A stretch of DNA of 63,585 nucleotides, counting the filler, from Craspedostauros australis (taxonomy: Eukaryota), in assembly GCA_030167865.1 (NCBI GenBank). It is 19 parts of 19 records of this genome, joined end to end, with 100 filler letters (N's around TTAATTAATTAA, not from the genome) between each part and the next. Parts side by side here need not be neighbours in the genome. Positions count along the whole stretch, not along the records: positions 57,538 to 59,270 come from JALAGF010001152.1; 18 more parts are not named here. One strand, 5' to 3'. The notes under the pieces are model-generated. The model made no database searches. It saw only the letters and a list, made by a program, of their open reading frames with translations, and had not been told where the DNA came from. Of the stretch, positions 22,501 through 61,430 are shown one piece after another. Positions within the stretch are counted from its first letter, which is position 1. Every line of letters begins with the position of its first letter. Made by a program: the position numbers and the translations under genes.

Positions 22501-23249
22501 ATCCTGCCAACATCGAGCTGAGCCCCAACGTCGTTCGCCAGCTCCAGGACTACGTTGCACAGATCGCAAGGATGTACAAGCCCAATCCCTTCCATTCGTT
22601 CGAGCATGCATCCCACGTCGTCCAGTCCGTCAACAAGCTCATGGCACGTGTTGTGACGCCATCCGACTCCATTGACTATACCGAGCTCGCCTACAAGCCA
22701 GCACAGAACACGAGCGCCAACATGCACAAGTTCACATACGGCATCACCTCCGATCCTTTGATTCTCTTCGCCTGCGCCTTCTCCGCCTTGATCCACGACG
22801 TTGATCACAGCGGTCTCCCCAACGCCGTCCTGGCCGAGGAGGACCATCCGTTGGCGCAGATGTACAGGAACAAGAGCATCGCAGAGCAGAACTCCGTCGA
22901 TCTGGCATGGAAGCTGCTGCAGCTCCCCAAGTACAACGACTTCCGCAGATGCATCTACCAGACACAGGACGAACTGAGGCGATTCCGCCAGCTCGTGGTC
23001 AACGCCGTCATGGCGACGGACATCATGGACAAGGACCTCAACATGCTGCGCAAGAAGCGCTGGGACAGAGCCTTCGAATCCAGCACCGGTGATGAAGCAG
23101 ACACCAAGGAAGATAGCGACCGCAAGGCCACGATCGTGATCGAGCATCTCATCCAGGCATCCGACGTGGCTCACACCATGCAGCACTGGCATGTCTACCT
23201 CAAATGGAACGAGCGATTGTTCCATGAGATGTATCGGGGATACAAGGAG
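19524..23249 (+). CDS. Receptor-type class III nucleotide cyclase / class I phosphodiesterase fusion, 3'-partial; exons 19524-19829, 20074-21303, 21546->23249
   Basis: TM1, a CHASE-like extracellular region, TM2, cyclase (LFADIVGFT, KVETIGDCY, RFQLFGDTVNTASR) and PDE (NPFHSFEHASHV, LIHDVDH, ATDI, ASDVAH). GT-AG introns at 19830-20073 and 21304-21545 join the frames correctly. The start ATG is a best guess. Confidence 0.93.
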
Positions 23250-25389
23250 NNNNNNNNNNNNNNNNNNNNNNNNNNNNNNNNNNNNNNNNNNNNTTAATTA
23301 ATTAANNNNNNNNNNNNNNNNNNNNNNNNNNNNNNNNNNNNNNNNNNNNAAGTGCGTATGAGAGAATAGCGGGTGAACGATGCACATATACACGTACATC
23401 TTGACGTATACTCACATGTACATCTCGACAAACGGTGGAGGTGATCTCGGTGCTTCCAAGGGCGCGAAATTGTTCCTGGAGGCCCAACACGATCTACCAG
23501 ATGTCGAACGCGAGGTAAATCTGGAACAATGCGATCGACATCTAGCGGTAGTGATCTTGCAGCGACAGACGTGGCTGGATGAGCCGAGTTCTGTGACGAT
23601 TGAGACGGTGAAAGCCGATCGCTTTCGTTCCACTCGTTTGGTGGATTGATGTGGGCTCACCGGGCGCTTGTCGACGAGCTGCTCATGCTGTGGAAGATGC
23701 TGTTGTTCAAGGAGGTTGGAGATTTCTGGTTGTCTGACACGTTTTGCATTCACAGCTTACATGGTAGTATCGTACGTAGTCGTAGCTATCTCGCTCATCC
23801 CTCAAGGGGATCGTTTCAAGCATGTCCAGCGATGACTGATTGAACGAATACTCACCATCGCAGGCAAATTCATTCATGTTGGCGGCATTGTTGCAGTGAG
23901 CTATTGTAGTTGTAAACAACGGCATGCACCGTTTGGAGCTGCTCGAGGGTGACTTCATGACTCCCATGAGGATAGTGAAGACGGAGTCGACCAAGGAAGA
24001 GAGGGGGTGCCTCCAGAGGCTGTGGTGCCATCGGGACTGACAAGGATGATCATTCCGTGAAGCACCAGAGTCCACCAAGCTGACGCTTGTCTCTCTCTCT
24101 TGCATCGTTCTTGGCTGATCATGCTGTTGCTGTTGGTGTTGCTCTTGTTAGTGCTGTGGGTGCTATGCATGATATTCATTGATTTTCTGAGTTGCTTGCG
24201 TCTGAGTTGTTGGTGATGCTGATGCAGATGCTGATTTGTGAGAGGAGGACTGACGGGAATGAAGAGACTTGAGGATCTCGCACGATGAGGACGCCACAAG
24301 ATGGATGGGATTCATTGCCAATGCTGAGAGTAGCATCCATATACATTTGAACACCCTGGCACGATCGTTTGGATGTTGCGCAGGCGTTCGCCACGAGAAA
24401 TCGATCTTGTTCGGCATCTCCAGGGATGTCGCAGGTTCTCAACTACAAAAGCACCTCCTGTTGTGGAGGGACCATTTTGTGTTGTTGTTGGAAGTATCCG
24501 TGGATGTTGGTGCTCTTGTCTATCGATGGCTCAGGGGACAACCACTGTGGCAATATGAGTGATGGAATGCTGGAGTATCGGCATATGGAAACAGGGATCA
24601 TCCTATCCCTCCATCATCAGGAGCGCCGATGACTCGCTGGTCAAACTTGTTGGGAACACGATCGTTCAATCCACCGCCTTCATGCGTACTCGTAGTAGTA
24701 CAATGCATATTCCAGGTGCGGTTCTCAGGCAACCATGTTGCCGATTGGACTCCTTGGGGGATATGCGTACATCATGACGTGCGATGGTTGCAATTGAGAT
24801 TGTGACCATCTTGGTGCTCCCTCCATCGCGTCATCGCTGTTGGCGTCATCATCACTTTCGTGGTTGTTTCGGGTTGACGATCAGTCCTTCTCATCTGAAC
24901 ACCTTTCTGACGTGTCCTTCTCATGAAAGAAGCTAATAAAGTACTTCATTGACACACAGAATTCGTGGAATTGGGAACATCTCTGCACGCGCAAAAGTGG
25001 TGAAGCGAGAATCGACGATTCCCATTTGTGGTGTTCTCGCGTTCGCAACAGCGATCTTGTGGGGGTGTGTTGTGTTCTGTTCCTCCTTCTCGTTGTTGTG
25101 TGCACTGTTCGTGGTCAGCAAAAGGAAGGATCCGCACTCTCCAAACACCGCGGTTACCCTCTCCCAAACCAGGGGTGCGATCAAGAGAGGGAGACAGAGA
25201 GACGAGGAGAGAAACGGGAGAACATTGAAACGAGGCAACCGCACACACCGCTCAACACCATACTCGAACACATCAACAACAGACATGTCATGGGTACCTC
25301 GAAAAGCACGCTTCCTCAAAAGGCAATCCAACGCCAATCGTTCAACGTCCAACGTCAATCGTCCAGCAACCATCGACCATCCTCTCAAA

Positions 25390-27009
25390 ATGCCGAGTGT
25401 TACTAACCAACAACTCATTGATGCTGCCAGGGCAGGTGACTTGTGGGTGTTGAAGGAATGGAAGAAACAGAACAAGACGCAGAATGAAGGAGGTGATGTC
25501 AACAAGGTTACAGGCTGGGATGGTTGGATTCCCCTTCATCAGGCATGCCTGTGTGGCCAGCTGGGGTGTGTGAACTATCGCATCGAATCAGGTGGGGCGA
25601 ACATCAACTGTAAAACCAAAAATGGCGACACTCCCCTTCATAAAGCTTGCTCCAACGGCCACCTGGAGTGTGTGAAGTACCTCATCGAATCATGTGAGGC
25701 AGACATCAACTGCAAAAACAACAATGGTTCCACTCCCCTTCATCTGGCATGCAACAACGGCCACCTGGAGTGTGCCAAGTACCTCATCGAATCATGCAGG
25801 GCTGACATCAACTGCAAAGACAACAATGGTGACACTCCCCTTCATCAGGCGTGCCACAGCAGCCACCTGGAGTGTGTGAAGTACCTCATCGAATCAGGTG
25901 AGGCGGACATCAACGTCGAAAACAACGTTGGATCCACTCCTCTTCATTGGGCATGCTCCAAAGGCCACCTGGAGTATGTGAAGTACCTCATCGAATCATG
26001 TGAGGCGAACATCAACTGCAAAACCATCTATGGTGACACTCCTCTTCATCGAGCATGCCACAACGGCCAGCTGGAGTGTGTCAAGTACCTCATTGAATCA
26101 TGTGAGGCGAACATCAACTGCGAAGACAAATATGGTTGGACTCCCCTTCATCGGGCATGCCAATTTGGCCAGCTGGAGTGTGCGAAGTACCTCATCGAAT
26201 CAGGTGAGGCAAACATCAACTGCGAAAACAACTATGGAAACACTCCCCTTCATCGGGCATGCCAATTTGGCCAGCTGGAGTGTGTGAAGTACCTCATCGA
26301 ATCAGGTGAGGCGAACATCAACTGCAAAACCAACGATGGATCCACTCCTCTTCATCGGGCATGCCACAACGGCCACCTGGAGTGTGTGAAGTACCTCATC
26401 GAATCATGGGGGGCCGACGCCAACTGCAAAACCAACAACGGTTGGACTCCCCTTCATTGGGCATGCCACAACGGCAAGCTGGAGTGTGTGAAGTACCTCA
26501 TCGAATCAGGTGGGGCCGACGCCAACCACAAAGACAACGATGGTTCCACTCCCCTTCATCGGGCATGCTCTGAGGGCCATTCTGAATGCGTGGAGTACCT
26601 CATCGCATCAGCCAATGCCGATATCGACATCCAAAACAATAACAACAAAACCCCCCTTGATGTGATTGGGACAAACAATCAAATCAACGTGATGAGATCG
26701 ATCATCCCTGGTCTCAGTCACCGCAGCTCGGAACTGCGACAGCAGTTGAAAGAGAACGAGCAGGAGAATGAGCAACTGCGGCAGCAGTTGGAACGGGAGG
26801 AGGAAGAAAAGAAACAGAAGGCACAAGAGAATGAACAACTGCAGCAACAATTGGAACATCAGCTGAAGCGGAAGGAAGAAGAGAATGAACATTTGCGACA
26901 ACAGTTGAGACAGCAGTTGAAGCGAAAGAAGAAAGAGAATGAACACAAACACAGTAGCCACAAGAGGACCAGCATCAGCATTGGAGAAGACCGGCTCAGA
27001 TCCGTCTAA
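25390..27009 (+). CDS. Ankyrin-repeat protein (11 near-identical 34-aa repeats) with a coiled coil
   Basis: G.TPLH.AC..G.LECVKYLIES repeats at a 102-bp period (25522-26643), followed by a Q/E/K-rich heptad region. Confidence 0.92.
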   Translation: MPSVTNQQLIDAARAGDLWVLKEWKKQNKTQNEGGDVNKVTGWDGWIPLHQACLCGQLGCVNYRIESGGANINCKTKNGDTPLHKACSNGHLECVKYLIESCEADINCKNNNGSTPLHLACNNGHLECAKYLIESCRADINCKDNNGDTPLHQACHSSHLECVKYLIESGEADINVENNVGSTPLHWACSKGHLEYVKYLIESCEANINCKTIYGDTPLHRACHNGQLECVKYLIESCEANINCEDKYGWTPLHRACQFGQLECAKYLIESGEANINCENNYGNTPLHRACQFGQLECVKYLIESGEANINCKTNDGSTPLHRACHNGHLECVKYLIESWGADANCKTNNGWTPLHWACHNGKLECVKYLIESGGADANHKDNDGSTPLHRACSEGHSECVEYLIASANADIDIQNNNNKTPLDVIGTNNQINVMRSIIPGLSHRSSELRQQLKENEQENEQLRQQLEREEEEKKQKAQENEQLQQQLEHQLKRKEEENEHLRQQLRQQLKRKKKENEHKHSSHKRTSISIGEDRLRSV

Positions 27010-34005: not shown

Positions 34006-36264
34006 CTATTCAAACAATGCCAACATCCTCCCATCGCGACCTTCCTCTTGTGCACATTGCAACGGCGTATCACCACTCTTGTTCTGAATGTGCGGATCGA
34101 TCATCTCCAACGTCATCAGATACTCAACCACTTCCAAATACTCGCCTTTCACAGCACAGTACAGCACCGTATCTCCCTCATCATTCGCCATGTTCACATC
34201 CACATCCACCTTGTTCGATTCGACCAACAGTTTCATCTTCTCAGCTCGTATCTTGTGATCATCACTCTCGCTCTCACTTTCACACCCATGCTCAGATACA
34301 TTTCTATCTGCTCCTTTGCAAATACAGTGCAATGCTGTATCACCGCTGCTGTTTCGCAACGTGGCATCCACTGAGTCACATCCGATCAGATTCCGAAGGA
34401 CAGAAACATCGCCCTTCTTGCATGCGAGATGGAGGAGCGTGGTGCCATCATGATTCTGAATGTTCGCGATTGCTGTGACATTCTCCAACAGCTGTTGCAT
34501 GATGTCCACATCACCAACGGTATCACCATCATCAACATCATCATGGTTGTGCTTGTTGGAGAGATCGATGAGGTTGGTTGTGGCAATGATTTGATGTTGA
34601 ATGAAATCGAAGACGTGACGAAGCCTGGCGGTGTGATTGAAGGTGAAGAGCAAGCCCCTGTTGAATGCAATGTGAAGAGGTGTGTCACCATGTTTGTTTT
34701 GGACGTTGAGGCTTGCATCGGTCTTGCGTGACTGGAGCAATTCCTTGATGAAGCTTCGCCTATTTCTCAAGCAAGCAATGTGGAGAGGCGTATTCCCATG
34801 GTTGTTTTGGATATCGTTGGTGTTGTCGATGTCTGTATGGATGCCAATATCGTCGTTGTTGATGTTGAGCTCGTTGAAGTCCACCAAGCACCAAACGACA
34901 CGCCTGGACAGTGATGGTTGACCGCAAGCGATGTGGAGAGGCGTATTCCCATCGTTGTTCTGGGTGCGAAGCATGATGCTAGTGAGGGTACGATCATGAT
35001 TCATCAGATACTCAACCGCGTCGGGGGCCAGCCAATCCCTGAGAATGAGATGGAGCGGTGTATTCCCTTCGTTGTTTTGCATGCTCCCATTGGCGGTAGC
35101 GTTGGCATTGATGTTGCAGTTGCCGTTGATACCAAGCATGCTGTTGATGTCGATACGATCCGTTTCCATCAGACACACAATCAAATCTCTTTCCACCCAT
35201 AGGCAGGCAAAATGTAGCAGCGAATTGCCATTGCAGTTTGGTCCAATCACCTCAGGACGAACATCGAGTTCATCTAAATCCAACAAATATGCGATCATTT
35301 CCTTGTTCCCACTGCGACAAGCGCTATGGAGTGGAGTGTCCCCATTGTTGTTTCGGACGTTGACATCGATATCAACACCAATCCCATCCGACTCCATCAT
35401 GTACCTGACTATATCAATGTGACCGAACAGACATGCGACATGCAAAGGTGTGGAACCTTCCTTGTCCTGTTTGTTGATGTAAGCGTCAACGTTGATATGA
35501 CTCGATTGCACCAAGTATTCCAGCACATCGGGTCGTTCGCTCTGGCATGCGTGATGGATCAATGTGGAACCGTCATTGCCTTCCATGGTGATGGACACTT
35601 GGCCGGATTCCAACAAATACTTCGCGGTCTCAGCGTTGCTGTTTCCGCAGGCACAATGAAGCACAGTCTGGCCTTTGTTGTCTTTGATATTGACATCCAC
35701 GTCGATTCGATCGGATTCCATCAGATACTCAACAATGGCTTTGTGTCCATTCCAGCCAGCAAGGCAGAGTGGTGTTTGACCACTGTTGGATTTGATGTTG
35801 GCATCCACCTCGATTTCATTCGATTCCACCAAGTATTCAACGATGCTCTTGTGCCCATTCGAGCAAGCATGATGAAATGGCGTGCGCCCTTGCTTGTTTT
35901 GGAGATTGACATCCACATCGATTCGATCAGACTCCACCAGATACTTTACGATCGCCCTGGTTCCACGACAACATGCACGATGAAATACAGTTTCGCCGTC
36001 CTCGTCTGCCGTATTGGAAGGGATGACCGCTCCGTCCGCATACGATTCAACCAGATCTTGAAGCTCTGTCAAGTTATGATTGATGCATGCATTCTCCACC
36101 TGTCTGATCCACTCACAGACGGCCTCGTCACTGCTTATAGTGCATTGATTCCATTGTGACGAAAGAGATGTATGGTTGGGAAGTCGAGGTTGAATTGGAC
36201 CAGAGGAGGAAAGCACCAGCACCAGCATCAGCACCAGTGTGAGTGACAAGTACAAGCACAACAA
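34006..36264 (-). CDS. Ankyrin-repeat protein with about 14 divergent repeats; ends possibly frameshifted
   Basis: Repeated G.TPLH.AC motifs through the 752-aa ORF. The start is uncertain, and the last repeat degenerates near 34060. Confidence 0.85.
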   Translation of the reverse strand: MLCLYLSLTLVLMLVLVLSSSGPIQPRLPNHTSLSSQWNQCTISSDEAVCEWIRQVENACINHNLTELQDLVESYADGAVIPSNTADEDGETVFHRACCRGTRAIVKYLVESDRIDVDVNLQNKQGRTPFHHACSNGHKSIVEYLVESNEIEVDANIKSNSGQTPLCLAGWNGHKAIVEYLMESDRIDVDVNIKDNKGQTVLHCACGNSNAETAKYLLESGQVSITMEGNDGSTLIHHACQSERPDVLEYLVQSSHINVDAYINKQDKEGSTPLHVACLFGHIDIVRYMMESDGIGVDIDVNVRNNNGDTPLHSACRSGNKEMIAYLLDLDELDVRPEVIGPNCNGNSLLHFACLWVERDLIVCLMETDRIDINSMLGINGNCNINANATANGSMQNNEGNTPLHLILRDWLAPDAVEYLMNHDRTLTSIMLRTQNNDGNTPLHIACGQPSLSRRVVWCLVDFNELNINNDDIGIHTDIDNTNDIQNNHGNTPLHIACLRNRRSFIKELLQSRKTDASLNVQNKHGDTPLHIAFNRGLLFTFNHTARLRHVFDFIQHQIIATTNLIDLSNKHNHDDVDDGDTVGDVDIMQQLLENVTAIANIQNHDGTTLLHLACKKGDVSVLRNLIGCDSVDATLRNSSGDTALHCICKGADRNVSEHGCESESESDDHKIRAEKMKLLVESNKVDVDVNMANDEGDTVLYCAVKGEYLEVVEYLMTLEMIDPHIQNKSGDTPLQCAQEEGRDGRMLALFE

Positions 36265-37593
36265 GGACGCTCATACACGCAGTCGCATTTGTGCACGCCT
36301 CGCAAGAGATGCGGCCAAACCAATCCAAACCAAACCAAGACAACTCACGCTTCCAATTGACCGCTGGACATGTTGATCGTTGTTCGTGTGATGCTTTTGA
36401 TCCTTTGTATGCTGCTGGTTGCGTGGGTGGCGTCGATTGGATGAATCACTCTCCGATTGTGACAAGAAGTGTACCGTCCAGTACCAATGATTGTCTTCTG
36501 TTTCCTGTCTGTGTGGCGAGCTGTTTTGACAGCAGAGACGAGATGACGAGCTGATCTGAGTGTTGTCGCATTCACCACACGACAACAATCCACCGTGATG
36601 TTGGTCGTGTGGGTGTCGCCACATCACCAACCATTCCTCATGCCATCTTTGGTGTCACGGCAAGAATGGAGACGACAGAATGGAATTCTCACATCATCAG
36701 AAGCACAGCCACCATTTCATGTCAGTTCTCGACACCGAAGAATCCGAACACTGACAAAGATCCAAAACAGAAGGACTCCTCGTTGGTGGTGTTGTCCGAT
36801 CCACACTGTACGTACATCTCCATCTCCATCTCCATTCGAATGGTCGCAGCCACCACCATCTAAAGCTCACTTCATGCTGCACGCTCCATCATCTGCTGTC
36901 TTCATACCATACGCATACGCATACGCATACGCATACTTGTGCGCCCAATCACTCAATCACTCAACCACTCAACCACTCAACCACTCAACGATTCAATCAC
37001 CATCTGGAACCAGTCAAGACAGGGATGAATCGAATGAGCAATGACATGTCGGTGGTTGGGATTGTTGACGCGCATCATGATGTTGCTGCCATGCAACACG
37101 GGCTTTGATGGGTGCAAAGGAGTGGCCAGCGGTTTCCATCCCCTCAGCAGCAGCACTGTCGGCAATGTTGCCAAGCCAGAGACATGGATCTGCACAACTC
37201 CGCCATCTTCAGGTTGCGGTGCGATTCTCCATGCTGGCGGCATCCTCCTGCGACTCCGAGCTGATAACAGAGGAAGGACACAAGCAGATCGATTCAGATG
37301 CGCAACTTCCACTCGAATCCGTGTACAGCGACGTTCTGTGGGAGAAGAGGATGGTGCACCATCACCCCAGGCGCATGATCCACTCATCCAAGGAACGATG
37401 GAGGTGGGAGATGCACCAATCCAACTGAAAGAAGATGGACTTTGGAATGACGAAATGAGGATGAGTACCAGTTTGGATGTACAGAAACAACTGGCCGACG
37501 ACAGAAGCGCACTTCACCACAGCGCGCAATATTGGAGAGCAATCGACAACGAGTACATCAATCAGTTGTACAAACAGCGTGGCATCAACGGAG

Positions 37594-42555: not shown

Positions 42556-45353
42556 NNNNNNNNNNNNNNNNNNNNNNNNNNNNNNNNNNNNNNNNNNNNT
42601 TAATTAATTAANNNNNNNNNNNNNNNNNNNNNNNNNNNNNNNNNNNNNNNNNNNNTTGACTGATAGCCGCATTGAGCGATTGAGCGCGGTCGACTTTCCT
42701 TGGCTGGCCCGGCCTCATCAGTCCATGCCGAGTGCGCAGGTCGGACGGGATGAGCGATATCAACGGAATCAACGGAATCGACGTGCTGAGGGACGTTCCA
42801 TCAAGTTATGACGAGGAGATGGAGATGAGATGGAGGACGGTTACGATCATGGCGATTGCAGAGGCAGCTTCACTCCGTCTTCGATGGGCCTGCCTTGTGT
42901 GATTCCCATGGACGCCGATTTGTTGGCGGCTGCAACATCATTGTATGGTAGGGTACATCATTGTCCATCATCGTGCATCATGGTCATCATGGTGCATAAT
43001 AGTAGTAGTAGAGGAGTGCTCTATGGTATTCCGTCGCTCCCATGTATTGTGCAATACGTACGAATGCACCATAGCTCGTACAGAGTCTGGTGCCAATCCA
43101 GTCCCCAGTCAGTCACGACAAAGCGCAACCATCCAAACGCTTCCGAACCCGAACCACGTCACGTTCCAAACCCAGCCTTCGGCGAGCCTCGCCGAAGGTG
43201 AAGGAACTGCAGGAACAGTCCAGGACAAGGAACACAATCTGTGGATCCGAGTAGAAAGACGCCGCAAGGCCGCACATCACCGCGATCACCGCGGCGAATC
43301 AGGAGGAAACGAAACACCTGCAACAACCAATGCAGCTCCTCATAAATACTAATTCACAACCTTGATCATTGCACACCATCGTATCAGCATCTGGACTACC
43401 AATAGTAAGATGCGACGATGGCAGGAGATGAGAGAGAGAGTGTGTGGTCTTTGGACGGAGTTGGTCACACCCGCGGGCCACTTGCGGGTTCCGTGTCTGC
43501 GAAGGGGAGTCTCACTGGTGGTCGAGATCTGGCAAAGGCATTCCTTTTCTTCCATTGCTTTCGGCGCTAACAACTGCGCGGATCCTGGAAAGCACAGAGC
43601 TCTCCGTTGGTCGCTTGTCGGCGTTTGCCGGTTCTCAAATGTTTGTGATTGGCGCACTCGTTGATCCGATTGCGGATGGATGGATGGATGGATGGAGTGA
43701 TGGATGGAGTGATAGCAGATTCAAAGCAGCATCCAGCCACCCATAAATGTAGGAGTATCACAGGCCCGTGCTTGCCAGGCGATAGAAGCAACGGTGACGG
43801 AGACTGTGCTGAATCGCGACGAGAAGAAGTGCACTCTGCCTCTTCCGTCGTTCTTGGCAGAGGAACAGAATGATGGCGTGGCCGTCCAGATGGGAATCAG
43901 AGACGTCAAACCTTGCGACCACGGTTCAGGAAGTAGAGAGGGCCACCAACCATCCAGTTCTGTCTTTGCGCATCTTGACACCTTTCGGTTGTTGGTTCGT
44001 TCGTTCGCTCGTTCTCGTCGCACGGGTATTGTACCAAACCAAGCGACGCATTCAGGTTTTGCCGCTGTTCCTGAGGAGCATCGATCTGGACAATTGGCCA
44101 CATTTTGATAGCACGATGCTGACGTGCTCGGCAGTGGCGGTGCGACGGACGCAGGCGTCTTTTGCGTGGCCGCATCCAACCAATTGCACCGCCGATGAGC
44201 ACGAGCGCGGATAGCGCTGACGAAGAGGACGACGACGTTGACGACGAGGATGGGCACGATGCCAACAAACGCAATCAATGAAGTGGACGGAGTGATCGAT
44301 TTTCCTTGTGCTCGTACTCGTATGGTACGTATGGTATGTATGGCAGCTTATATGGTATTGGAATTGTTCTCGTCGTTGGCTCAACTTCTTCGGGCCTTGA
44401 GTCGGTACCGGTCAGTCGCAAAGGCAAGCACTTCGGATGTTTATTATCGTTGTCAGTGGTGTCGTTGTGGTTGTTGTTGGACTCCGTTGGTCGCGATTCC
44501 GGTTGACGTCAACGACCTACAATCCAGTCCTGGACGTGGGAAGTCAACCTGTTGTTGTGTCACTACCTCCGGAAAGTGCGTCATTCATTCGTGGCATTCA
44601 GACGTGTAGTGTTGATGTAGGATCTTTGGTAGGAGTTGTGGAGCTAACAACATAGAGCATCCTTCAGATTTGTAACGTGAGCGTCGGATCACCGATGCAA
44701 CCCGGCTGGATACTTATTGAAATACTCCACAGAAATCTTCGGTGCCTTTTTATTACAAAACGTATGTTAGCACTTTGCAGAGTGCTACTTGAAGTTGGGA
44801 AATGTTCATAAGTGGACGAGTACATAACGAAGCCTCGCAACAGTGTGACGATTGCTTGTACTTCACGCCAGAATTGTCCAGGTGCGCACAAAACAGATGA
44901 CTGTGGCCGTCGCGCTCACAAACCAAAGAGTTCTCCGGAGCACGATTTACCAAATGCTCCACCAAGACAAACACATCAGTGAGAGCCATCAATCCGTGAT
45001 GCCTCCAGCAACACCATCGAAATGGCCACGACATGTCATAAGATGAAGGACCGCTCACCAGCCCTTTCGATCGATCTCTTTTCACTCCAGTGCTGTGTTG
45101 AAGTCCCGTTACCCCCTGCGCTCCGAATTCTCTCACTGCACGATCACACTACTTCGAAGACACAACAAAAAGAGCGGAGCCGAATTGATCAACGCAAGCA
45201 CACACCCCGCAAGTGGCTCTCCGGCATCAGCAACTTGCTTGAAAACAAACGGGCGCCATCTACAACACACAGGATCACACACCAGTGCCATTGAGCACAC
45301 CTCATGCGGAGAAGAATCAGACTCACACGCACATCGCATTAATACAACAGCGT

Positions 45354-47030
45354 ATGTCGGGACTTTCACACACGCACCTCACAGGCACCGACACAGACCG
45401 ATGCAATCCCGACGAAGGCATAGCACCACGTGAGCGAGAGCGAAATGGTTACAGGAGCAAACCCACGATCAACGATGAAAGTATCGACAGCAACGATGAC
45501 AACAAACACACGACCAATAGCAGCGGCAACAGCGGCAGCAGTGAAGTGTCTGAGTGGCAACCGATGCCGATTGGAGCCGGGCCCATGACAGTCGTGTCTT
45601 CCGTGCACATCAGCGACACTTTTCGGAGCCAAGAGCAGCTCGCGGAGCTGAAAGGCTTTCTCAGCATTGTCTTTGCTCCATCATCAAGAGCAATGCGAGT
45701 GATCACTCCAGCGGACGTGACTGGAATTCAGTTGCCTCCATCGCCAACACCTACTGCGATCGAAGTCACCAACAACCCTCCGCATCGTGTATCTACCAAT
45801 CGACAACGCCTGCATAAACAGAGGCGGACAAGGCACCAATACGAATTCATTCACGATCAGTTCGAAGTCGGTGATATCAACTCTCGCGCTCTTGAGCGCA
45901 ATCACGATATTGTCGATGATGCTCGGTACATTCAAATTCTCGAATCGCCAGGCAGACTACTACTTGACAACACAACCACAATGAGCAGCAGCGCAAATGA
46001 TTCACAACACTTTCATTTCGAGTCTCTTCGTCTTGATACATGGGATGAGACCGACGAAGATTCCTGGATCAACGAGCTTCAGGTGTCTGGCGAGCGTGCA
46101 GAAACGGATGACATTGGCATCGGCTATGCGCAGTATCTTGAGCACACAGATCAAGTTGAACAGTCCATTGAGGATGAGCAGGTGGCGAAGGCGCAGCGGC
46201 ATCTCGATTTTTCCATGACAGCCGGCGGCTCTGCAAAGGATGTTCTGACAGTGGACTATTCGGACATCAGTATCTGTGTCTCCGATGCTGAGGCGACCGC
46301 GGTGGGTGAAGGGAATGCGGTGCAAGGGGCCATTTTTGCGAACGCCGACCAAGAAATACAAGAGATGGCATCAACAGCCGCGGCATCACTGTTCCCAGAG
46401 CCCTCTCGGCCACCACGAAGGCGAGAGCAAGCACATGCGAGGCAGCATGCTCCAACCTCTTCTTCACTGGCTTCGTCTTTGCCTTCCACAAGGAGGAAGC
46501 AGAGATCCGATACAAGTAGATCCCAGAGTGGTATCAAGTTCCGCCAGTACCAATCCGACCAGTGGGATGTTCGCTATCATGAGCTCATCCAATTCCACAA
46601 GCACCATGGACACTGTATTGTGGGGTCGAGGGATGGTAAAACGCTCTCGCATTGGGTCAAGCGACAGCGGTATCTGTACAAGCAAAAGCAGGACGGTCGG
46701 CACTCGACTCTCACCGACGAGAGGCAGGCGAGGTTGGAACGCCTTGGCTTCGTGTGGGACTCTCACGATGAGGCATGGGAAAATCGATTCAACGATTTGA
46801 TGCTGTACAGAGCCAGACACGGGCATACAAACGTCCCCGCGCACTTCTCGGAACAGCCGCCCCTTGGCATTTGGGCGAAGGTCCAACGCCGTCAGTATCG
46901 CCTATACCGCAGTGGCCAAAGGTCAACGTTGACAGAAAGGCGCATTGAACGTCTGAATGAGGTGGGCTTCCCTTGGCTGGCGCAGCCCAACCAGACGGCC
47001 GCAAACAGATCATCGAAGAAGCGCAAGTGA
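45354..47030 (+). CDS. Helicase-associated (HA) domain protein with two C-terminal HA domains
   Basis: W..RY.EL..F...HGHC.V..L..WVKRQR..RLERLGFVW, followed by a second copy ending LNEVGFPW. Long disordered N-terminus; start uncertain. Confidence 0.88.
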   Translation: MSGLSHTHLTGTDTDRCNPDEGIAPRERERNGYRSKPTINDESIDSNDDNKHTTNSSGNSGSSEVSEWQPMPIGAGPMTVVSSVHISDTFRSQEQLAELKGFLSIVFAPSSRAMRVITPADVTGIQLPPSPTPTAIEVTNNPPHRVSTNRQRLHKQRRTRHQYEFIHDQFEVGDINSRALERNHDIVDDARYIQILESPGRLLLDNTTTMSSSANDSQHFHFESLRLDTWDETDEDSWINELQVSGERAETDDIGIGYAQYLEHTDQVEQSIEDEQVAKAQRHLDFSMTAGGSAKDVLTVDYSDISICVSDAEATAVGEGNAVQGAIFANADQEIQEMASTAAASLFPEPSRPPRRREQAHARQHAPTSSSLASSLPSTRRKQRSDTSRSQSGIKFRQYQSDQWDVRYHELIQFHKHHGHCIVGSRDGKTLSHWVKRQRYLYKQKQDGRHSTLTDERQARLERLGFVWDSHDEAWENRFNDLMLYRARHGHTNVPAHFSEQPPLGIWAKVQRRQYRLYRSGQRSTLTERRIERLNEVGFPWLAQPNQTAANRSSKKRK

Positions 47031-52613: not shown

Positions 52614-55600
52614 GGAGGATGGCAGCGTAATGAACTGTCCTATCCATCCATTCACGAATATTCCGACCGCATTGGCGCGCGATCCTCAACACCAACTTGC
52701 AGAAAAACCGGATGCAATACCCTGCCAATGCAAGTCTCACACTTGTTTTGAATGCCAAATCACCCACGCTCTACCATCCGTCCTGTCACCCGCAAACGAG
52801 AACCTCACCGCAAATCAGAAACAACTGCTACTGGATCATCAACGCTTCGGACATCTCGGAATGGATCATGTGAAACAACTTTATCGACTCACACGCAGAG
52901 TAAGACGTCTCTCCGGACCTGCGCAAAGATGGATTGAGACCCCTTGCCTTCCAGGGCGAGGAAAGGGACCTGCCAACTGCATNAACCCACTCTGCCAAGC
53001 CTGCGCCATCGCAACGGCCAAGCGTCGACCAATACCTACAAGAACCTCACATCCATCCGAAGACCAACGTCCAATTGCTCCAAACGCAACCAAACCAGGT
53101 CACCTCGTCTCTGTGGATCACTACCACGTTGCAGTGAAAGGACGCCTCGAACACACCAAAGGGCGCGAACCCGTATCCAGCAAATATGTTGGCGGAACCA
53201 TCTTCTACGACAGCTACAGCGGGTTCATCCATACCTTCCATCAGGCATCTCTCGGCGCACACGACACCATCCAAGCCAAGAACGACTTCGAGTACATTGC
53301 CAGCCAGAGCAACGTGTCCATCAAGATGTACCATACGGACCAAGGCTCTCTCTCCTCCCGCACCTTCCGCGAATCGTTGACTGCCAATCAGAGCATCCGG
53401 TTTGCGTCGCAAGGAGCGCACCATCAAAATGGAGCTGCAGAGGTCGCTATCCGAGTCATCATGAACAGGGCGAGAGCAATGCTCATTCACGTCAGCCTCC
53501 ACTGGCCCGATCAATTCGATGTCGAACTTTGGCCGCTCGCAGTCACCTACGCCACCTGGACATACAACCACATTCCGCAGCGAAACTCCAACAGCTCTCC
53601 CATGGCAAAGTTCACGGGATCTGACGACAGCTGTGTAATGCTCCAGCGATCGCGCGTATGGGGTTGCCCAGCATACGTCCTGCACAAGAACCTCCAAGAC
53701 AAGAACAAGATTCCAAAATGGGAAGCAAGAGCTCGGATGGGCCAATTCCTTGGCTTCAACCGCGAGTTCTCCTCAACCGTCGCATCCATCCTCAATCCTC
53801 GTACCGGTCACATCAGCAGTCAATATCACTGCGCCTTCGACGAACGCTTTTCTACCATCGCAACAACCGACGACGGAGAAGACGACATCGACCCCAACTG
53901 GCATGACATCATCCGTTTCGAAAGCGATAACTACGCCGAAGACCACGACGAAGACATCGACGGACCTCTGCCTGACGCAGATCCCGAATTCATGACCGAC
54001 GAAGAACGAGAAGAATGGAATCGCCAGCATCGCCCCGAACCACGCATGCCTCCGCTCATTCATCCGCCGGCAACAATCATCAGAAACGATGATGACGACG
54101 GATTCGTCCCTCGCACATCACCCGATACAAGCATCCATGATCTGCCGCCTGGCACCGAAGTGGACAGCGGCGACGAGGACGACAACGCCGGCATACCGCT
54201 ACCAGATCCTTCCCTTGAAAATGAAAACAACACTGGCATGCCACAGCCAGAGCCACCAACGGCCGAAGATAACTCTCCAGTTATACGATCTCGATCCGGA
54301 CGACGCATTCGCAGACCCGCTCGCTACCGTCAGAACGAAGCAACCTCTCGCAACACCGTCTTTCATCGCATTCATGCTCTCTGCCGCGGGCGCGGACCTC
54401 GACCACAGACATCACCACTCTTCTTCCAAAACCTCAATTGGGACATCAACGACAACTTCGACATCCCAAGCCGCTACCAGATCCTACTGGAAGCGTCTAC
54501 CAGTCCAACTCTCAACGAAATCTACGATATGGACCCTCTCATTCTCCAAGCCAAAGCGCACGATGACGATCATCCATCTCTTGCCGACGTTCTGAACTGC
54601 CCTGACCTAAACGAACGAGCCATATGGCGAAAAGCAATGAACGCTGAAATTGAACAGCTTCTTGACAAGAAGACATTCCGCGTGGTTCCTCGGTCAATGG
54701 CAATCAACCACGAAATCATCCCTTCAACCTGGGTCTTTCGTCGCAAAAGATTCCCAGATGGATCCATTATGAAGCTCAAAGCCCGTCTCTGCGTGCGAGG
54801 AGACCAACAGCAACGAACAGGGCGAGACAGAAATGAAACGTTTGCTCCCGTTGTTGAATGGAGCTCCATCCGTCTGATATTCGCACTGATGATCGAACAT
54901 GGACTGCACACTCAATCAATTGACTTCAAAAATGCATTTGTTCAATCTCATCTGCCTGCTCCAATCTACATGCTTCCTCCCCCTGGACCGATTCCTATCA
55001 ACAATCCAAACATTCCAGAGAAGGACCGCCCTATCCTACAAGTCAACAAGAGTCTTTACGGTGACCGAAGAGCGCCACGCCTGTGGTACGAACATCTTCG
55101 CGACGCCCTCATCAGCGACAAATTCGGATTCAGAATGGCTGAGCAAGATCCCTGTCTGTTCCTCAAGAGCAACATCATCATTTGCGTCTACGTGGATGAT
55201 GCGATCCTCTGTGGCACAACGATGGAAACTGTTCAATCGACTATCCAACAGCTGCATCAAGAAGGTTTTGACCTCACATGCGAAGGAGATCTCTCTGCAT
55301 ACCTCGGTATAAAGATCGAGAAATCCAACGATGACCAAATCAAGCTTTCTCAGCCTGGCCTCACAGCCAAAGTCATTGAAGCCCTCGGACTGCAACAAGG
55401 ATCCTCCCGCGTAATTCCAGCAGACGCCACTCTTGGCAAGAATCCAGATGCCGATTCCATTTCCAATCAATTCAACTACAGATCCGTATTGGGAATGATG
55501 ATGTATCTTGGCACGAACACAAGACCAGACTGCGCATTTGCCATCAATCAATGCGCTCGATTCAGCCATGATCCGAAACATCCTCATGAACTCGCACTCA

Positions 55601-56184
55601 AACGCATCGGACGCTACCTCCTCGGAACGAAAGACCAAGGCATCCAAGTCAAACGATCAGCAATCGGCTCCATGGACTGCTATGTCGACGCTGACTTTGC
55701 CGGAGTCTGGGGCAAGGAAGATCCTCAAGATCCCAACTCCGTCCGATCCCGCACTGGATTCATCATCACCCTTGGTAACATGCCCATCATTTGGAAATCA
55801 AAGATTCAGTCCGAAATCGCAATGTCAACACAAGAAGCAGAGTACATTGCACTCTCAACCGCAATGAGATCAGTCATACCTCTCAAGAACGCTCTCAAAC
55901 AACTCATGCACGCCTTCCACATCAAATCAACGGCAGAATCAGAACTGACCACCATCTTCGAGGATAACCAAGCTGCCATCACCTTAGCAACAACGAAGCC
56001 GCCGCGGATGACACCAAGATCAAAACACATCGCCATCAAATACCATTGGTTTCGATCTCACCTCAAGAAAGGATCCTTCGAAATCAAGTACATCGATTCA
56101 ACTCTTCAGAAAGCCGACATCATGACGAAGCCATTGGCGCGAGCCAAATTCGTGGCAGCCCGAAAGCTGATCATGGGTTGGTAA
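52614..56184 (+). mobile_element. Uninterrupted Ty1/copia (CoDi-II-like) pol: integrase, RT, RNase H; 5'-partial
   Basis: HHCC (HQRFGH..CQAC), DDE (SVD, HTD, GAAE), RT VYVDD, RNase H YVDADFAG/EAEY/EDN/ADIMTK. At least 1184 aa with no stop. Confidence 0.97.
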
Positions 56185-56385: not shown

Positions 56386-57437
56386 GGCAGGTCCCTTTCC
56401 TCGCCCTGGAAGGCAAGGGGTCTCAATCCATCTTTGCGCAGGTCCGGAGAGACGTCTTACTCTGCGTGTGAGTCGATAAAGTTGTTTCACATGATCCATT
56501 CCGAGATGTCCGAAGCGTTGATGATCCAGTAGCAGTTGTTTCTGATTTGCGGTGAGGTTCTCGTTTGCGGGTGACAGGACGGATGGTAGAGCGTGGGTGA
56601 TTTGGCATTCAAAACAAGTGTGAGACTTGCATTGGCAGGGTATTGCATCCGGTTTTTCTGCAAGTTGGTGTTGAGGATCGCGCGCCAATGCGGTCGGAAT
56701 ATTCGTGAATGGATGGATAGGACAGTTCATTACGCTGCCATCCTCCAACNNNNNNNNNNNNNNNNNNNNNNNNNNNNNNNNNGGTTGGCGATCGGTCTTG
56801 ATGCTGTGGTATTGAGCGTAGGCTTGCGGAGAGAAGAGGCGGATGTGTGCTTCCTCCACGTAATGTGCTCTGGTTCGGACAGGTGCGATGTTTCCGTTCA
56901 GGGATAGCACTTGCCATTGGACGGTGCCTATGCCAGAGATTTGAAGTTTGCCGCTTGCTGTTTGGATGTCTCCGAAATTACCGAGATGTGGTCCTGTGAT
57001 AAAGTCCTCCTTTCGATATGTCATGGAGAATGAGCACCCAGTGTCGAGGATGATGGGACACATGGCGCGCTTGTTGGTGAGACCGGGAGTATGGTAGTGA
57101 CGGGAGACGAGAACGTCCATGAAGTTCGGTGCTTTGGATGCTTCATAGGCAGTGGAGGCCAGATAGGAGANNNNNNNNNNNNNNNNTCGAAGTTTATCTG
57201 ACTGAAGGGTGAAGAAAGATGGAGTGATCGAAAAGCAGTGCTTTGGTTGAGACGGAGGTAGAGACATTGCGCGTTGTTGGGCATCTGCGGCAATGCGTCG
57301 GTTCATCATGAATGAGTCAAACTCATCATGGAATCCGGAGAGATGAAGGAAGTGAGCTGGCAGCGGGTCGTTCTTGCGTGTGTGCTCGTCGTTCCATCCG
57401 TCGCCAAAGAGCAGTTGATCGTAGTCGAGAGGCTGGT
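56386..57437 (-). mobile_element. Second copy of the same copia family, protease to integrase zinc-finger region
   Basis: IILDTGCSFSM protease motif. Near-identical to 57538-58589 and overlaps the start of the 52614 contig. Confidence 0.93.
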
Positions 57438-57537
57438 NNNNNNNNNNNNNNNNNNNNNNNNNNNNNNNNNNNNNNNNNNNNTTAATTAATTAANNNNNNN
57501 NNNNNNNNNNNNNNNNNNNNNNNNNNNNNNNNNNNNN

Positions 57538-58926
57538 GGCAGGTCCCTTTCCTCGCCCTGGAAGGCAAGGGGTCTCAATCCATCTTTGCGCAGGTCCGGA
57601 GAGACGTCTTACTCTGCGTGTGAGTCGATAAAGTTGTTTCACATGATCCATTCCGAGATGTCCGAAGCGTTGATGATCCAGTAGCAGTTGTTTCTGATTT
57701 GCGGTGAGGTTCTCGTTTGCGGGTGACAGGACGGATGGTAGAGCGTGGGTGATTTGGCATTCAAAACAAGTGTGAGACTTGCATTGGCAGGGTATTGCAT
57801 CCGGTTTTTCTGCAAGTTGGTGTTGAGGATCGCGCGCCAATGCGGTCGGAATATTCGTGAATGGATGGATAGGACAGTTCATTACGCTGCCATCCTCCAA
57901 CTCGAATGAGAAGGATTCCGTGTCTCCGTAATATGGTTGGCGATCGGTCTTGATGCTGTGGTATTGAGCGTAGGCTTGCGGAGAGAAGAGGCGGATGTGT
58001 GCTTCCTCCACATAATGTGCTCTGGTTCGGACAGGTGCGATGTTTCCATTTAGGGATAGCACTTGCCATTGGACGGTGCCTATGCCAGAGATTTGAAGTT
58101 TGCCGCTTGCTGTTTGGATGTCTCCGAAGTTACCGAGATGTGGTCCCGTAATGAAGTCCTCCTTTCGATATGTCATGGAGAATGAGCACCCAGTGTCGAG
58201 GATGATGGGACACATGGCGCGCTTGTTGGTGAGACCGGGAGTATGGTAGTGACGGGAGACGAGAACGTCCATGAAGTTCGGTGCTTTGGATGCTTCATAG
58301 GCAGTGGAGGCCAGATAGGAGACGGCTTGCACCTGTGTTCGAAGTTTATCTGACTGAAGGGTGAAGAAAGATGGAGTGATCGAAAAGCAGTGCTTTGGTT
58401 GAGACGGAGGTAGAGACATTGCGCGTTGTTGAGCATCCGCGGCAATGCGTCGGTTCATCATGAATGAGTCAAACTCATCATGGAATCCGGAGAGATGAAG
58501 GAAGCGAGCTGGCAGCGGGTCGTTCTTGCGTGTGTGCTCGTCGTTCCATCCGTCGCCAAAGAGCAGTTGATCGTAGTCGAGAGGCTGGTGTTTGTTGTAA
58601 AAGCGTTGTTGGTGTTTCCAGCGATCGGTAGTGAGTGTTGAAAGGAAGAATAGTGTTGTCGATGGGATCATCACAGCGGATAGAAGGAAGAGACGACTCC
58701 AGAAGCCCATCCTCATGCGTTGCGTTGAGGCGAATATGGTCGGTGGTGCTTTGGAGCGACAGACTCGGTAGCTCTTGCGTCCGCGCATGATGTTGACGTG
58801 GTTGAAGGTTTGGTGACAGTTGGCAGATAATGCCAGGACGTATGTTGTGAATGTGGATGCGAGCAGGTGCCAGAGGAGAGACGGGAATAGCAGGATCGGA
58901 CTTACGACAATGAAAGCTGCCTTTAA
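57538..58926 (-). CDS. pol frame of the same copia family: transframe region, protease, start of integrase
   Basis: The frame is open from 58938 to the contig end. The protease Asp codon is at 58195-58197. Confidence 0.88.
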
Positions 58927-59270
58927 AAACCCTCTTGTTCAGAGAATCTCAAAAGCTTGCGAGTTTCGTCGTCGTTCCCTTTTGGTTCCGCTTGCTTGTT
59001 TGAGTTGTTGGAGGATCCCTTTCTACCTCGGCCGCGACGGTTGCGTTGGCGAGAGACGAAGTCGTCATGTCCGTCGGTTGGATGGTTGCCCCATCGTTTG
59101 CAGGTTTCATGGTCACACCAGTATTCAGTCTTGCCGTGGGTGATGCGCTCGTGTGCCTCGCCCTGCTTTGGAGGCGTGTAGTCGATGGGCTGACCTCCGC
59201 GGTCATGGGAAGGTCGGCTGCGTCCTGAAGAGTCCTTGACGTTGGTGTTGGCTTTGCTCCTGATGCCTCT
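58923..59270 (-). CDS. gag C-terminus of the same copia family (missing from the ORF track because it has no start codon)
   Basis: Manual translation gives ..PPKQGEAHERITHGKTEYWCDHETCKRWGNHPTDGH..basic tail..SEQEGF*. Confidence 0.82.
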   Translation of the reverse strand, partial: RGIRSKANTNVKDSSGRSRPSHDRGGQPIDYTPPKQGEAHERITHGKTEYWCDHETCKRWGNHPTDGHDDFVSRQRNRRGRGRKGSSNNSNKQAEPKGNDDETRKLLRFSEQEGF

Positions 59271-59372
59271 NNNNNNNNNNNNNNNNNNNNNNNNNNNNNN
59301 NNNNNNNNNNNNNNTTAATTAATTAANNNNNNNNNNNNNNNNNNNNNNNNNNNNNNNNNNNNNNNNNNNNTG

Positions 59373-61430
59373 GCATCGTCGCAGGAGGACGAATCCTCGT
59401 GCTGGAGCGAACTGTTCCAGGCCAGCCAAAATGGCGATCCGCAGCAAGCTGAGTCCATTCTGAATGCAATGCGCGCATCGCCCGATCAGCGACCCAACCT
59501 CAAGGCCTACACCATGACGTTCCAGGCCTACGCGAAGTCGGCGAGTCCCGACATTGTCAAGCGCTCCGAATCCCTGCTGCGGCGCATGTGGTTGGATTAC
59601 AAGGCTGGCATCTTGATGGACGGACCGCCGACGGAGTTTGCCTACAATTCCGTCATCAATGCGCATGCCAAGCAGCTGCTCTTCTTGCGGCGCAACCATC
59701 AATTTGGCGACGCCGAAGCGCTGCAGCAGCGCGAGACGTATGAATACCAGAGAGCGGGTGGGCGGATTGCGCGTGGCGATGACGATGCGCAGAATAACGA
59801 GGCTGTGGACAATGCCAACGATGAAGCGTTGGCAACGGCACAGGCGACTCCGCTCTCCAACAGTGGTGCCATGATGATACCGACGTTCTACAAAGATGGC
59901 AAGCCGTCCATCAAGCGCGTCATGGAACTGCTGCATGAGATGCAATTCTTCTCGGCGACGTCGACCGCAACGCACATGAAGCCCAGCGTCGTCACGTACA
60001 ACTCCGTCATTCACTGTTTGGCGCAGATTGGGGACTATGATACGGCAGAGGCCATTCTGGACGACATGATTCAGGAATCCAAACCGCTGGGCGATAGTGC
60101 TGGCACTCGCAACGGCGATGGCGACGAAGCCACCGTCCAACCGGATCCGATCACGTACAACGCCGTTATCAGCGCATTCTCCAACAGCCCGCAAGCCGAA
60201 AGCTCTTCACCGTCGTCTAGAATACCGGAACGAGCACAGGCGTTGCTGACGCTGATGGAAAATCATCCCAGCCCCGAGGTGAAACCCGATATCGTCACCT
60301 ATAACAGTGTGCTGAGCTGTTGGGCCAAGTCGGGACGGTTGGATGCCGGCGAACGTGCCGATGCCCTGCTGCAGCGCATGAAGACCGAAGAGTGCGGCGT
60401 GCAGCCATGTCTCATCAGCTACAACACCGTCCTCTCAGCCTGGTCACGATCCATGGTGAAGCCGTCGGCGCGTCGTGGCACAGATCACGCGCCCAGCAAG
60501 GACGCTCCCAGACGTGCCGAGCTCATCCTCAAAGAGCTGCAGGAATTGTACCGCAGCAAGAAGCAAAAGAACGCGCTGCACCATTCCATGAAACCCGACA
60601 TCTACACCTACACCACAGTCATCGACTTTTGTGCGCAATCGCGACAGAAGGTGGCGGCGGATCGAGCTGCCACCATCCTGTTTGAGATGAAGGATCTGCT
60701 GGAGCCCAATACCATCACGTACAACGCGGTCCTCAAAGCTTACGCCAAAGTGGGCGAGGCCGAGAAGGCGGAATCCTTGCTGCAGGATATGATTGAAGGC
60801 ACGATGCAAAGCGCGCTGCAGGATGACCAGGCAGATACCACAACCGTCGCGGTCCTGCCCGATCGCATATCCTTCAACACGGTGTTGGACGCCTGGTCCA
60901 AGTCGCGTTCCCCCGATGCGCCGGAGCGCGCCGAGTTGCTGTTCGAACAGATGGATAGGTACCACGAAGAGGGCATCATCGCGTGCCGTCCCGACACGGT
61001 CAGCTTCAACACCCTCATCAATTGCTGGGCCAAGGCCAGCTCGGCCCGACCGCACGGCGCCCAACGTGCCGATGACCTCTTGACCACCCTGCAGCAGCGG
61101 TACCGCCAATCCGACAAGAGCCACGATCTGCGTCCCACCACCATCACGTACAGCTCCGTCATCGCGGCCTGGGCGCGCAGCCGCAAGACGCAGGCGGCCG
61201 ATCGGGCGCTCGAGCTGCTAGGAGCCATGAACGCCAACCGGCATCTCAGGCCCACCGTTCTGACCTACAATGCCGTGCTGCGGGCGGTCGTGGCGTCACC
61301 CATATTGTCGGACAAGGAGACGATTGATCATGTGGGCGGTGTCTTGCGCAAGATGAAGAAGGCCAGAATTGCCACCGATGGGTTTACCAAAAAAGCCATC
61401 GCACCTTTTGCCGATCAATTTGACTTGTGA
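59373..61430 (+). CDS. Pentatricopeptide repeat (PPR) protein, 5'-partial
   Basis: About 11 P(D/N/T)..(T/S)(Y/F)N.V(L/I)..W...G....AE.LL..M repeats. Open from the contig edge and ends TGA. Confidence 0.95.
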   Translation, partial: ASSQEDESSCWSELFQASQNGDPQQAESILNAMRASPDQRPNLKAYTMTFQAYAKSASPDIVKRSESLLRRMWLDYKAGILMDGPPTEFAYNSVINAHAKQLLFLRRNHQFGDAEALQQRETYEYQRAGGRIARGDDDAQNNEAVDNANDEALATAQATPLSNSGAMMIPTFYKDGKPSIKRVMELLHEMQFFSATSTATHMKPSVVTYNSVIHCLAQIGDYDTAEAILDDMIQESKPLGDSAGTRNGDGDEATVQPDPITYNAVISAFSNSPQAESSSPSSRIPERAQALLTLMENHPSPEVKPDIVTYNSVLSCWAKSGRLDAGERADALLQRMKTEECGVQPCLISYNTVLSAWSRSMVKPSARRGTDHAPSKDAPRRAELILKELQELYRSKKQKNALHHSMKPDIYTYTTVIDFCAQSRQKVAADRAATILFEMKDLLEPNTITYNAVLKAYAKVGEAEKAESLLQDMIEGTMQSALQDDQADTTTVAVLPDRISFNTVLDAWSKSRSPDAPERAELLFEQMDRYHEEGIIACRPDTVSFNTLINCWAKASSARPHGAQRADDLLTTLQQRYRQSDKSHDLRPTTITYSSVIAAWARSRKTQAADRALELLGAMNANRHLRPTVLTYNAVLRAVVASPILSDKETIDHVGGVLRKMKKARIATDGFTKKAIAPFADQFDL

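Follow-up and report, generated by a model that had tools for sequence, protein, structure and literature searches.

How does a retrotransposon obtain Pol when its gag frame ends in a stop codon and its pol frame begins one base out of register? The question is raised by a Ty1/copia-type element in a 63,585-nt stretch of the Craspedostauros australis (Eukaryota) assembly GCA_030167865.1, hereafter the window, whose gag/pol junction lies on the minus strand of a 1733-nt contig (JALAGF010001152.1; window positions 57538-59270). An earlier reading of the same DNA (the original prediction) had proposed a programmed -1 ribosomal frameshift at this junction. Frameshifting is, in our analysis, the best-supported explanation, and a related element from a metagenome contig (L005) has the same layout with a different slippery heptamer; however, no stimulatory RNA structure is predicted next to the site. 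Judged from sequence, we put the probability of real programmed -1 frameshifting, in a family that otherwise appears to use mostly stop-codon readthrough, at roughly 0.6.

The gag/pol junction and the pol frame

On the minus strand, the junction reads ...TCT GAA CAA GAG GGT TTT TAA AGG CAG.... Direct reading gives a heptamer of the slippery type X_XXY_YYZ, G_GGT_TTT, in the gag frame at 58926-58932 (-), and the gag stop codon TAA immediately 3' of it at 58923-58925 (-), whereas the -1 (pol) frame is closed upstream by a TGA at 58939-58941 (-). The overlap of gag and pol is 13 nt long (58938-58926) and contains the heptamer, in agreement with the short overlap that had been predicted. The junction therefore holds both the element expected at a canonical -1 programmed ribosomal frameshifting site, an in-frame X_XXY_YYZ within the 0/-1 overlap, and the hallmark of the sites of luteoviruses, dianthoviruses, and umbraviruses, a 0-frame stop codon abutting the heptamer on its 3' side. 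Re-reading of the sequence returned the same coordinates for the heptamer, the TAA, the TGA, and an ATG at 58788 as the original prediction, and also the gag end GAG GGT TTT TAA; what has to be corrected is the extent of gag, of which only a 115-codon tail is present, the contig ending at 59270.

A heptamer followed directly by a stop codon occurs nine times across both strands of the window. Only two of the nine sites combine an upstream frame of at least 60 codons with a -1 frame of at least 100 codons, and the junction site alone enters a long -1 frame, which reaches the contig end after 465 codons; that of the other qualifying site has 113 codons. The run of five T (T5) at 58929-58925, which spans the end of the heptamer and is adjacent to a second homopolymer, A3, is the sole T run of at least five in ~4.9 kb of element; homopolymers of at least five bases number four in all in the window's part of the element, one of them being this T5.

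The TGA at 58941-58939 was also considered as a real in-frame gag stop. This was rejected, with the pol frame upstream being closed within 40 codons, and it is further disfavoured by the gag frame ending in the family-typical G-F-stop. The third frame (+1 relative to gag) is open for 156 codons over the junction (58478-58948, minus strand) and has no recognisable domain; given the composition, this is probably due to chance.

Downstream of the junction, the -1 frame meets no stop codon between 58938 and the end of the contig at 57538, a run of 467 codons. It continues on another contig of the window, in the opposite orientation (52615-56184, plus strand), as shown by an exact, unmerged overlap of 361 nt (100% identity) in which 52614-52974 (+) is the reverse complement of 57898-57538, and by Pfam matches and relatives. 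Over the two overlapping contigs, pol totals 1536 codons, with matching frames, one ambiguous base, and a stop codon at 56182-56184, and neither a stop nor a frame break interrupts it through 4.6 kb. Hence, the predicted stop-free run of the -1 frame through protease into integrase was found and continues through the reverse transcriptase (RT).

The first ~245 codons of pol, from the junction to the protease (58204-58938, -), encode a hydrophobic N-terminal extension with no Pfam match. It carries a family motif, approximately FPxxW[MF][IL]LSxVM, which in the window reads GFWSRLFLLSAVM (codons 78-90 in a nine-sequence alignment); the first ATG of the -1 frame is located upstream of it, at 58788 (codon 51). 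The extension is followed by a retropepsin-like protease domain with the motif ILDTGCS (57973-58203, -; Pfam Pol_BBD, E 3.3e-6, residues 246-322) and by the start of the integrase, which comprises an H-x4-H zinc-finger region with HQRFGH and extends to the contig end (57538-57972, -; a weak gag_pre-integrs match and the nine-sequence alignment). The continuation at 52615-56184 (+) encodes the remaining integrase, an SH3-like domain, the RT, and an RNase H region up to the stop codon, with matches to RVT_2 (PF07727, E 9.2e-41) and SH3_retrovirus (E 3e-7) on 52615-56181, and it is 35-45% identical to full-length Pol relatives with a collinear domain order. Because the order of domains is protease, integrase, and RT/RNase H, and because the RT is of the RVT_2 type, the element is by its sequence a Ty1/copia-type element, as had been stated originally.

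Is this element still intact? A second copy or allele of pol codons ~117-467 is present at 56386-57437 (-) and aligns to 57538-58589. The two differ at 10 unambiguous positions, of which 9 are synonymous in the pol frame and 1 changes R to H; the copy ends 337 nt short of the junction site. By the pattern of substitution, a ratio of 9:1 is typical of copies derived from functional elements and points to recent activity under purifying selection. Together with the unbroken 1536-codon pol, the mostly synonymous differences argue that the element is not a decayed relic.

The N-terminal extension of Pol is strongly hydrophobic and has a membrane-like appearance, an unusual trait in the polyprotein of a retrotransposon, and stretches of ~100-350 residues precede the protease in the window and in the relatives L002-L006 described below, with a conserved motif of approximately W..x..FPxxW[MF][IL]LS. 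The conserved motif and these family-wide N-terminal lengths argue that the stretch from the junction to the protease is real coding sequence and typical of the family. To our knowledge, for which no literature search was made, no hydrophobic membrane-like domain upstream of the protease is known in any retrotransposon.

The gag tail (58926-59270, -; 115 codons, ending ...RFSEQEGF) was recognised by its frame and by its similarity to gag proteins; a Pfam search gave nothing for it. The tail contains the motif IDYTPPK..GKTEYWC..C.RWGNHPT of the family and is 60% identical over 63 aa to P0005, a stand-alone gag protein of 511 aa, and 41% identical over 54 aa to the gag open reading frame (ORF) of L005. 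A Zn-knuckle-like motif in this tail (59100-59160, -) is unusual, reading EYWCDHETCKRWGNHPTDGH (C-x4-C-x5-H-x4-H) where relatives have C-x2-C...RWGNH; a canonical CCHC knuckle was seen only in the gag of L008 (CWNCDSIEHVLGDC).

Junctions of related elements

A profile search with the 467-residue start of Pol, exhaustive over the protein library at E <= 0.001, gave 888 relatives; most of the best 150 match the protease-integrase part. Among the matches listed, many have 100 to 570 residues before the DTG motif, and many begin hydrophobic. A regular expression for the gag-type Zn knuckle matched 7 of the relatives, never upstream of the protease motif. Close copies were not found: among longer proteins there were four matches, all distant, and proteins of about the same length gave no match at E <= 1e-10; two scans of viral contigs and one of genome contigs gave no relative. 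Metagenome contigs were scanned with the nine-sequence alignment (A2), a 30-sequence alignment (A1) being too diverse, and this yielded 11 loci, in six of which the gag/pol junction is readable (L002-L006 and L008).

In five of the six readable relatives, gag and pol are in the same frame and separated by a single stop codon at the matching place: TAG after ...SAGF in L002 (near 132-134) and TGA after ...FMGI in L003 (377-379), ...DGSF in L004 (2661-2663), ...DHSF in L006 (1238-1240), and ...PATN in L008 (2423-2425). These five in-frame single stops, three of them with no nearby ATG, imply that stop-codon readthrough is the family's usual strategy, as far as sequence can tell. L006 and L004 read TTC TGA ATG, and reinitiation is also conceivable there. 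The gag of five of the seven elements ends in Phe (EGF* in the window, TNF* in L005, HSF* in L006, GSF* in L004, and AGF* in L002), which places the TAA of the window at the family's usual gag terminus.

The sixth relative, L005, has the layout of the window. Its contig is 7542 nt long and contains a gag frame of 530 codons from stop to stop with the EYWCVKCNRWGNHPTDK motif. This gag ends ACA AAT TTT TAG, with A_AAT_TTT directly before the stop, and pol lies in the -1 frame, reading KFLVALL.... The two elements share the EYWC..C.RWGNHPT motif of gag, the Phe-stop gag end, the heptamer, the -1 position of pol, and its hydrophobic start. They differ in that the -1 frame of L005 is open for 40 codons before the site (2 in the window), in that L005 has a second frame break inside the RT at a T6 run, and in sequence, the identity in the protease region being ~35%; indeed, the two junction regions gave no alignment at the DNA level. 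The break in L005 lies at 5889-5894 in GGG TTTTTT AAG, where T5 would restore ...TTWVF-KRKRLPDG...; the motif resembles the junction site, and the break is to be read either as a damaged or dead copy or as an error in the length of the T run.

The original prediction had proposed testing the conservation of heptamer plus stop among related elements, and the outcome is divided: it is borne out in L005 (-1 layout, A_AAT_TTT TAG), but the five in-frame relatives have no X_XXY_YYZ heptamer at the gag stop. A heptamer abuts the gag stop in both elements with pol in the -1 frame and in none of the five in-frame ones, an association for which we calculated p = 1/21 (Fisher); the heptamer is thus kept in one of one further relative with pol in -1, a small sample. 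The X bases differ (GGG in the window, AAA in L005), and both fit the X_XXY_YYZ rule. A quickly built maximum-likelihood Pol tree does not place the window element and L005 as sisters and has in-frame elements between them, although the deep branches are weakly supported.

Two further features of the relatives may be added. After the junction, all seven elements are mildly rich in pyrimidines (0.59-0.67). In L006 (7237-7728) and L007 (5981-6598), gag starts a second time on the same contig, ~1 kb past the end of pol, which reflects either elements in tandem or the assembly of a circular or one-LTR (long terminal repeat) form.

Frameshifting and its competitors

In our model, most ribosomes would terminate at the TAA (58925-58923) and produce Gag. 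A minority, with GGU and UUU in the P and A sites, would slip back by one base on G_GGU_UUU and re-pair as GGG-UUU, with tRNA-Gly and tRNA-Phe slipping together (tandem slippage). UUA-AAG-GCA... would then be read to give a Gag-Pol fusion with the junction peptide ...SEQEGF-LKAAF..., in which the hydrophobic linker would be followed by protease, integrase, and RT/RNase H. Alternatively, the P-site tRNA-Phe alone could slip on U_UUU with the stop codon in the A site, and the product would be identical. Both the slippage itself and its tandem mode are what we infer from the layout, tandem slippage being favoured because the XXX triplet is conserved. The abutting stop codon probably helps frameshifting, by analogy with luteo-, diantho-, and umbraviruses.

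What speaks against this model? First, folding, a check that the original prediction had proposed, gave no stimulatory structure: compared with dinucleotide shuffles, the sequence that follows the heptamer is not more stable over either 120 nt (z = +0.26) or 70 nt (z = +1.07), and the same holds for L005 (z = +0.99). Among hairpins constrained to begin 3-10 nt past the heptamer, the best has -7.3 kcal/mol in the window and -8.5 kcal/mol in L005, values matched by 17/100 and 26/100 shuffles. Hence, the stem-loop or pseudoknot 5-9 nt downstream that belongs to a canonical site was not seen in these local folds, in which pseudoknots and long-range pairing were not searched, and an adjacent hairpin of the luteovirus/dianthovirus/umbravirus type was not predicted, the 3' end of the RNA, where a distant partner would be expected, lying outside the window. 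Second, the T5 run is known only from a fragmentary assembly with internal Ns, and L005, the only other -1 example, has its second frame break at the T6 run in the RT. Third, five of six relatives have an in-frame stop, and one extra A after the TAA (A4 instead of A3) would give the window the same layout; the -1 arrangement was found in two elements only. Fourth, over the 49 residues that follow the junction, the resemblance to the relatives is not significant beyond composition: the summed score was reached by 67/1000 shuffles, and that of the best pair, with L002, by 39/1000. A resemblance after the junction (SPILLF / QPILLLF) was dropped as evidence for the same reason.

Since no local RNA structure is predicted, the efficiency of frameshifting would probably be low or dependent on an undetected signal; the site may rely on the heptamer and the abutting stop, or on a signal not seen here.

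Frameshifting by -1 at X_XXY_YYZ is the standard route to Gag-Pol in retroviruses and gypsy elements. Copia-group elements, in contrast, were reportedly found by Gao et al. in 2003 to be mostly of a single ORF. With the retroviral and Ty3-gypsy sites, the window site shares a gag-frame heptamer in a short overlap, pol in the -1 frame, and the purpose of a low Gag-Pol:Gag ratio; it differs from them in that the element is of the Ty1/copia type, no 3' hairpin is predicted, and the gag stop abuts the heptamer.

G_GGU_UUU is counted among the most shift-prone heptamers in passages of the review by Atkins et al. 2016 (PMC5009743), which also summarise the survey of LTR elements by Gao et al.: of 51 animal elements, 28 have pol in -1, and plant elements use only +1 shifts. 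Barley yellow dwarf virus (BYDV) was correctly named by the original prediction as a user of GGGUUUU: according to the passages on this virus in PMC8144474 and PMC4737148, the heptamer stands directly before a stop codon and drives -1 frameshifting, to which the adjacent stop contributes. The heptamer is identical to that of the window, where a stop also follows directly. The same sources describe a stop codon immediately after the slippery site in BYDV, red clover necrotic mosaic virus (RCNMV), and groundnut rosette virus (GRV), and an effect of the stop on efficiency in BYDV and pea enation mosaic virus (PEMV). However, these are plus-strand RNA viruses that make an RNA-dependent RNA polymerase in this way, and the sites of BYDV, RCNMV, and GRV are described there as also needing a large adjacent hairpin with long-distance pairing, to which nothing comparable is predicted in the window.

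Other Ty1/copia elements belong to the same superfamily and have the same need for less Pol than Gag. The strategies given for them in the parts of PMC2194720, PMC2829016, and PMC7175516 available to us are a single ORF (most plant elements), splicing (Drosophila copia), +1 frameshifting (Ty1, Ty2, Ty4, and some Sireviruses), and an in-frame stop (Tca2), the last resembling the layout of the five in-frame relatives. For Drosophila 1731, Gag-Pol frameshifting is mentioned with no direction (in a review and in the title of a cited paper). The original prediction knew of no description of such a mechanism for the diatom CoDi elements, of which the window element is at most a candidate member. This has to be qualified in two ways: the two-ORF layout itself is not wholly undescribed, as passages in Maumus et al. 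2009 (PMC2806351) place ORF1 (gag) upstream of ORF2 (polyprotein) in these copia-type elements, and the norm found here for the family is the in-frame stop. In open-access text, we found no -1 slippery site reported for copia-type or diatom elements; the CoDi table of Maumus et al. may already list the frame relation. The novelty is modest: the proposed mechanism is a known one, and it is the lineage that is unusual. Points of added interest are the family's in-frame stop at the same codon, the lack of a predicted structure, and the conserved hydrophobic start of Pol.

The explanation that competes best with frameshifting, and which we nevertheless consider unlikely, is that a single base was gained or lost, by an error of sequencing or assembly or by a mutation private to this copy, in an element that truly has an in-frame TAA (A4) or a fused gag-pol (T6). 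The A4 version would read GGT TTT TAA AAG GCA and bring the window in line with the in-frame stop at the matching place in five of six relatives, and an error would not be out of place in two adjacent homopolymers (T5 and A3) of a low-grade assembly of 19 small contigs with scattered Ns and unmerged overlaps; furthermore, the break at a T run in L005 demonstrates that such breaks occur in contigs of the family. However, this requires that two unrelated contigs both have an indel no more than a few bases from the gag stop, and that both indels produced a perfect in-frame heptamer by chance. With the Gly/Asn-Phe codons conserved, we estimate the probability of such a heptamer at ~1/16 to 1/32 for each element; of the five in-frame relatives, not one has a heptamer at the stop. 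The T6 version would, in addition, remove a gag/pol stop that is kept by all six readable relatives (five in-frame; in L005 at the gag end). A generally error-prone or decaying sequence is also hard to reconcile with the remaining 4.6 kb of pol, which has no frame break or stop, and with copy differences that are synonymous 9 to 1.

Less probable still is that Pol is made with no Gag-Pol fusion, by initiation at the ATG at 58788 (leaky scanning, reinitiation, or internal entry) or from a subgenomic RNA. This ATG, at codon 51, is upstream of the first clearly conserved motif of Pol (codons 78-90), the 49 residues preceding it are not significantly conserved, and in L006 and L004 an ATG directly follows the gag stop. 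There is also a precedent: the part of PMC2194720 that deals with Tca2, which is of the copia type, describes a junction reporter in which expression came from de novo initiation and not from readthrough. On the other hand, a scanning ribosome would have to pass the whole gag ORF of ~500 codons, it would be left unexplained why both -1 elements have a perfect heptamer next to the stop, and the first Met of L003 comes after the conserved motif has begun. The open pol codons after the gag stop that are free of ATG number 49 in the window, 33 in L005, 126 in L003, and 65 in L008. From these long ATG-free starts and the motif of L003, it follows, on sequence grounds, that Pol in this family cannot start at an AUG of its own and that its N terminus requires recoding at the gag stop; for the window taken alone, the case is weaker.

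Splicing of gag to pol, finally, is highly improbable: removal of a 14-nt GT...AG stretch (58930-58917), the sole frame-restoring one at the junction, would put gag into the pol frame (...SEQE-AFIVVSPILLF), but 14 nt is below the length of any spliceosomal intron known to us, and the L005 junction has no equivalent GT...AG, for which reasons we reject such an intron. Splicing does control Gag and Pol in Drosophila copia, as stated in the same part of PMC2194720.

Frameshifting at the heptamer may be part of a broader picture, which we offer as a tentative and, in all its parts together, rather doubtful proposal. A large and mostly uncharacterised clade of copia-type elements of diatoms and marine protists would set the switch between Gag and Pol at a single fixed position, the codon after the terminal Phe of gag, with repeated moves at this position between readthrough and -1 frameshifting (N_NNU_UUU_UAR), both modes working with no local structure, and Pol would begin with a conserved hydrophobic, membrane-like domain. 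The lack of local RNA structure in either mode would then imply that what drives recoding is either the stop codon as such or a factor acting in trans. A copia lineage with a conserved heptamer-plus-stop, nested among in-frame-stop relatives, would be a natural system for studying switches between readthrough and frameshifting, and would allow a test of how far a slippery site and an adjacent stop suffice with no RNA structure. The layout also matters for annotation: gene callers split such elements into a gag ORF and a seemingly start-less Pol ORF.

Source contigs and other features

The window consists of 19 contigs, each 1.1 to 9 kb long, with 18 spacers of 100 nt between them; every spacer is composed of 44 N, TTAATTAATTAA, and 44 N. 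Features on different contigs therefore have no real adjacency, and ORFs that "end" at a spacer are artefacts. The sequence past either end of the junction contig belongs to other contigs: one spacer lies at 59271-59370, with an unrelated contig beyond it, and another at 57438-57537. The element is spread over small contigs, and the 5' part of gag and both ends of the element lie outside the window.

An unrelated second copia-type fragment is present at 8625-11348 (-), with an RVT_2 match (E 2.4e-15) and ~23-26% identity to the relatives used here. Its RT frame is split by an in-frame stop at 9429-9431, and it looks degenerate. Other contigs carry ORFs of host type at 21420-23249 (+), 24940-27006 (+), 34009-36270 (-), 45243-47027 (+), and 59373-61427 (+); among them are a guanylate cyclase/phosphodiesterase fusion, two long ankyrin-repeat ORFs, an ORF with a helicase-associated (HA) domain, and a pentatricopeptide repeat (PPR) ORF. 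A diatom host is probable, as a lead given by the guanylate cyclase/phosphodiesterase ORF: the nearest Atlas cluster of this ORF has a score of 0.89, and its commonest phylum is Bacillariophyta.

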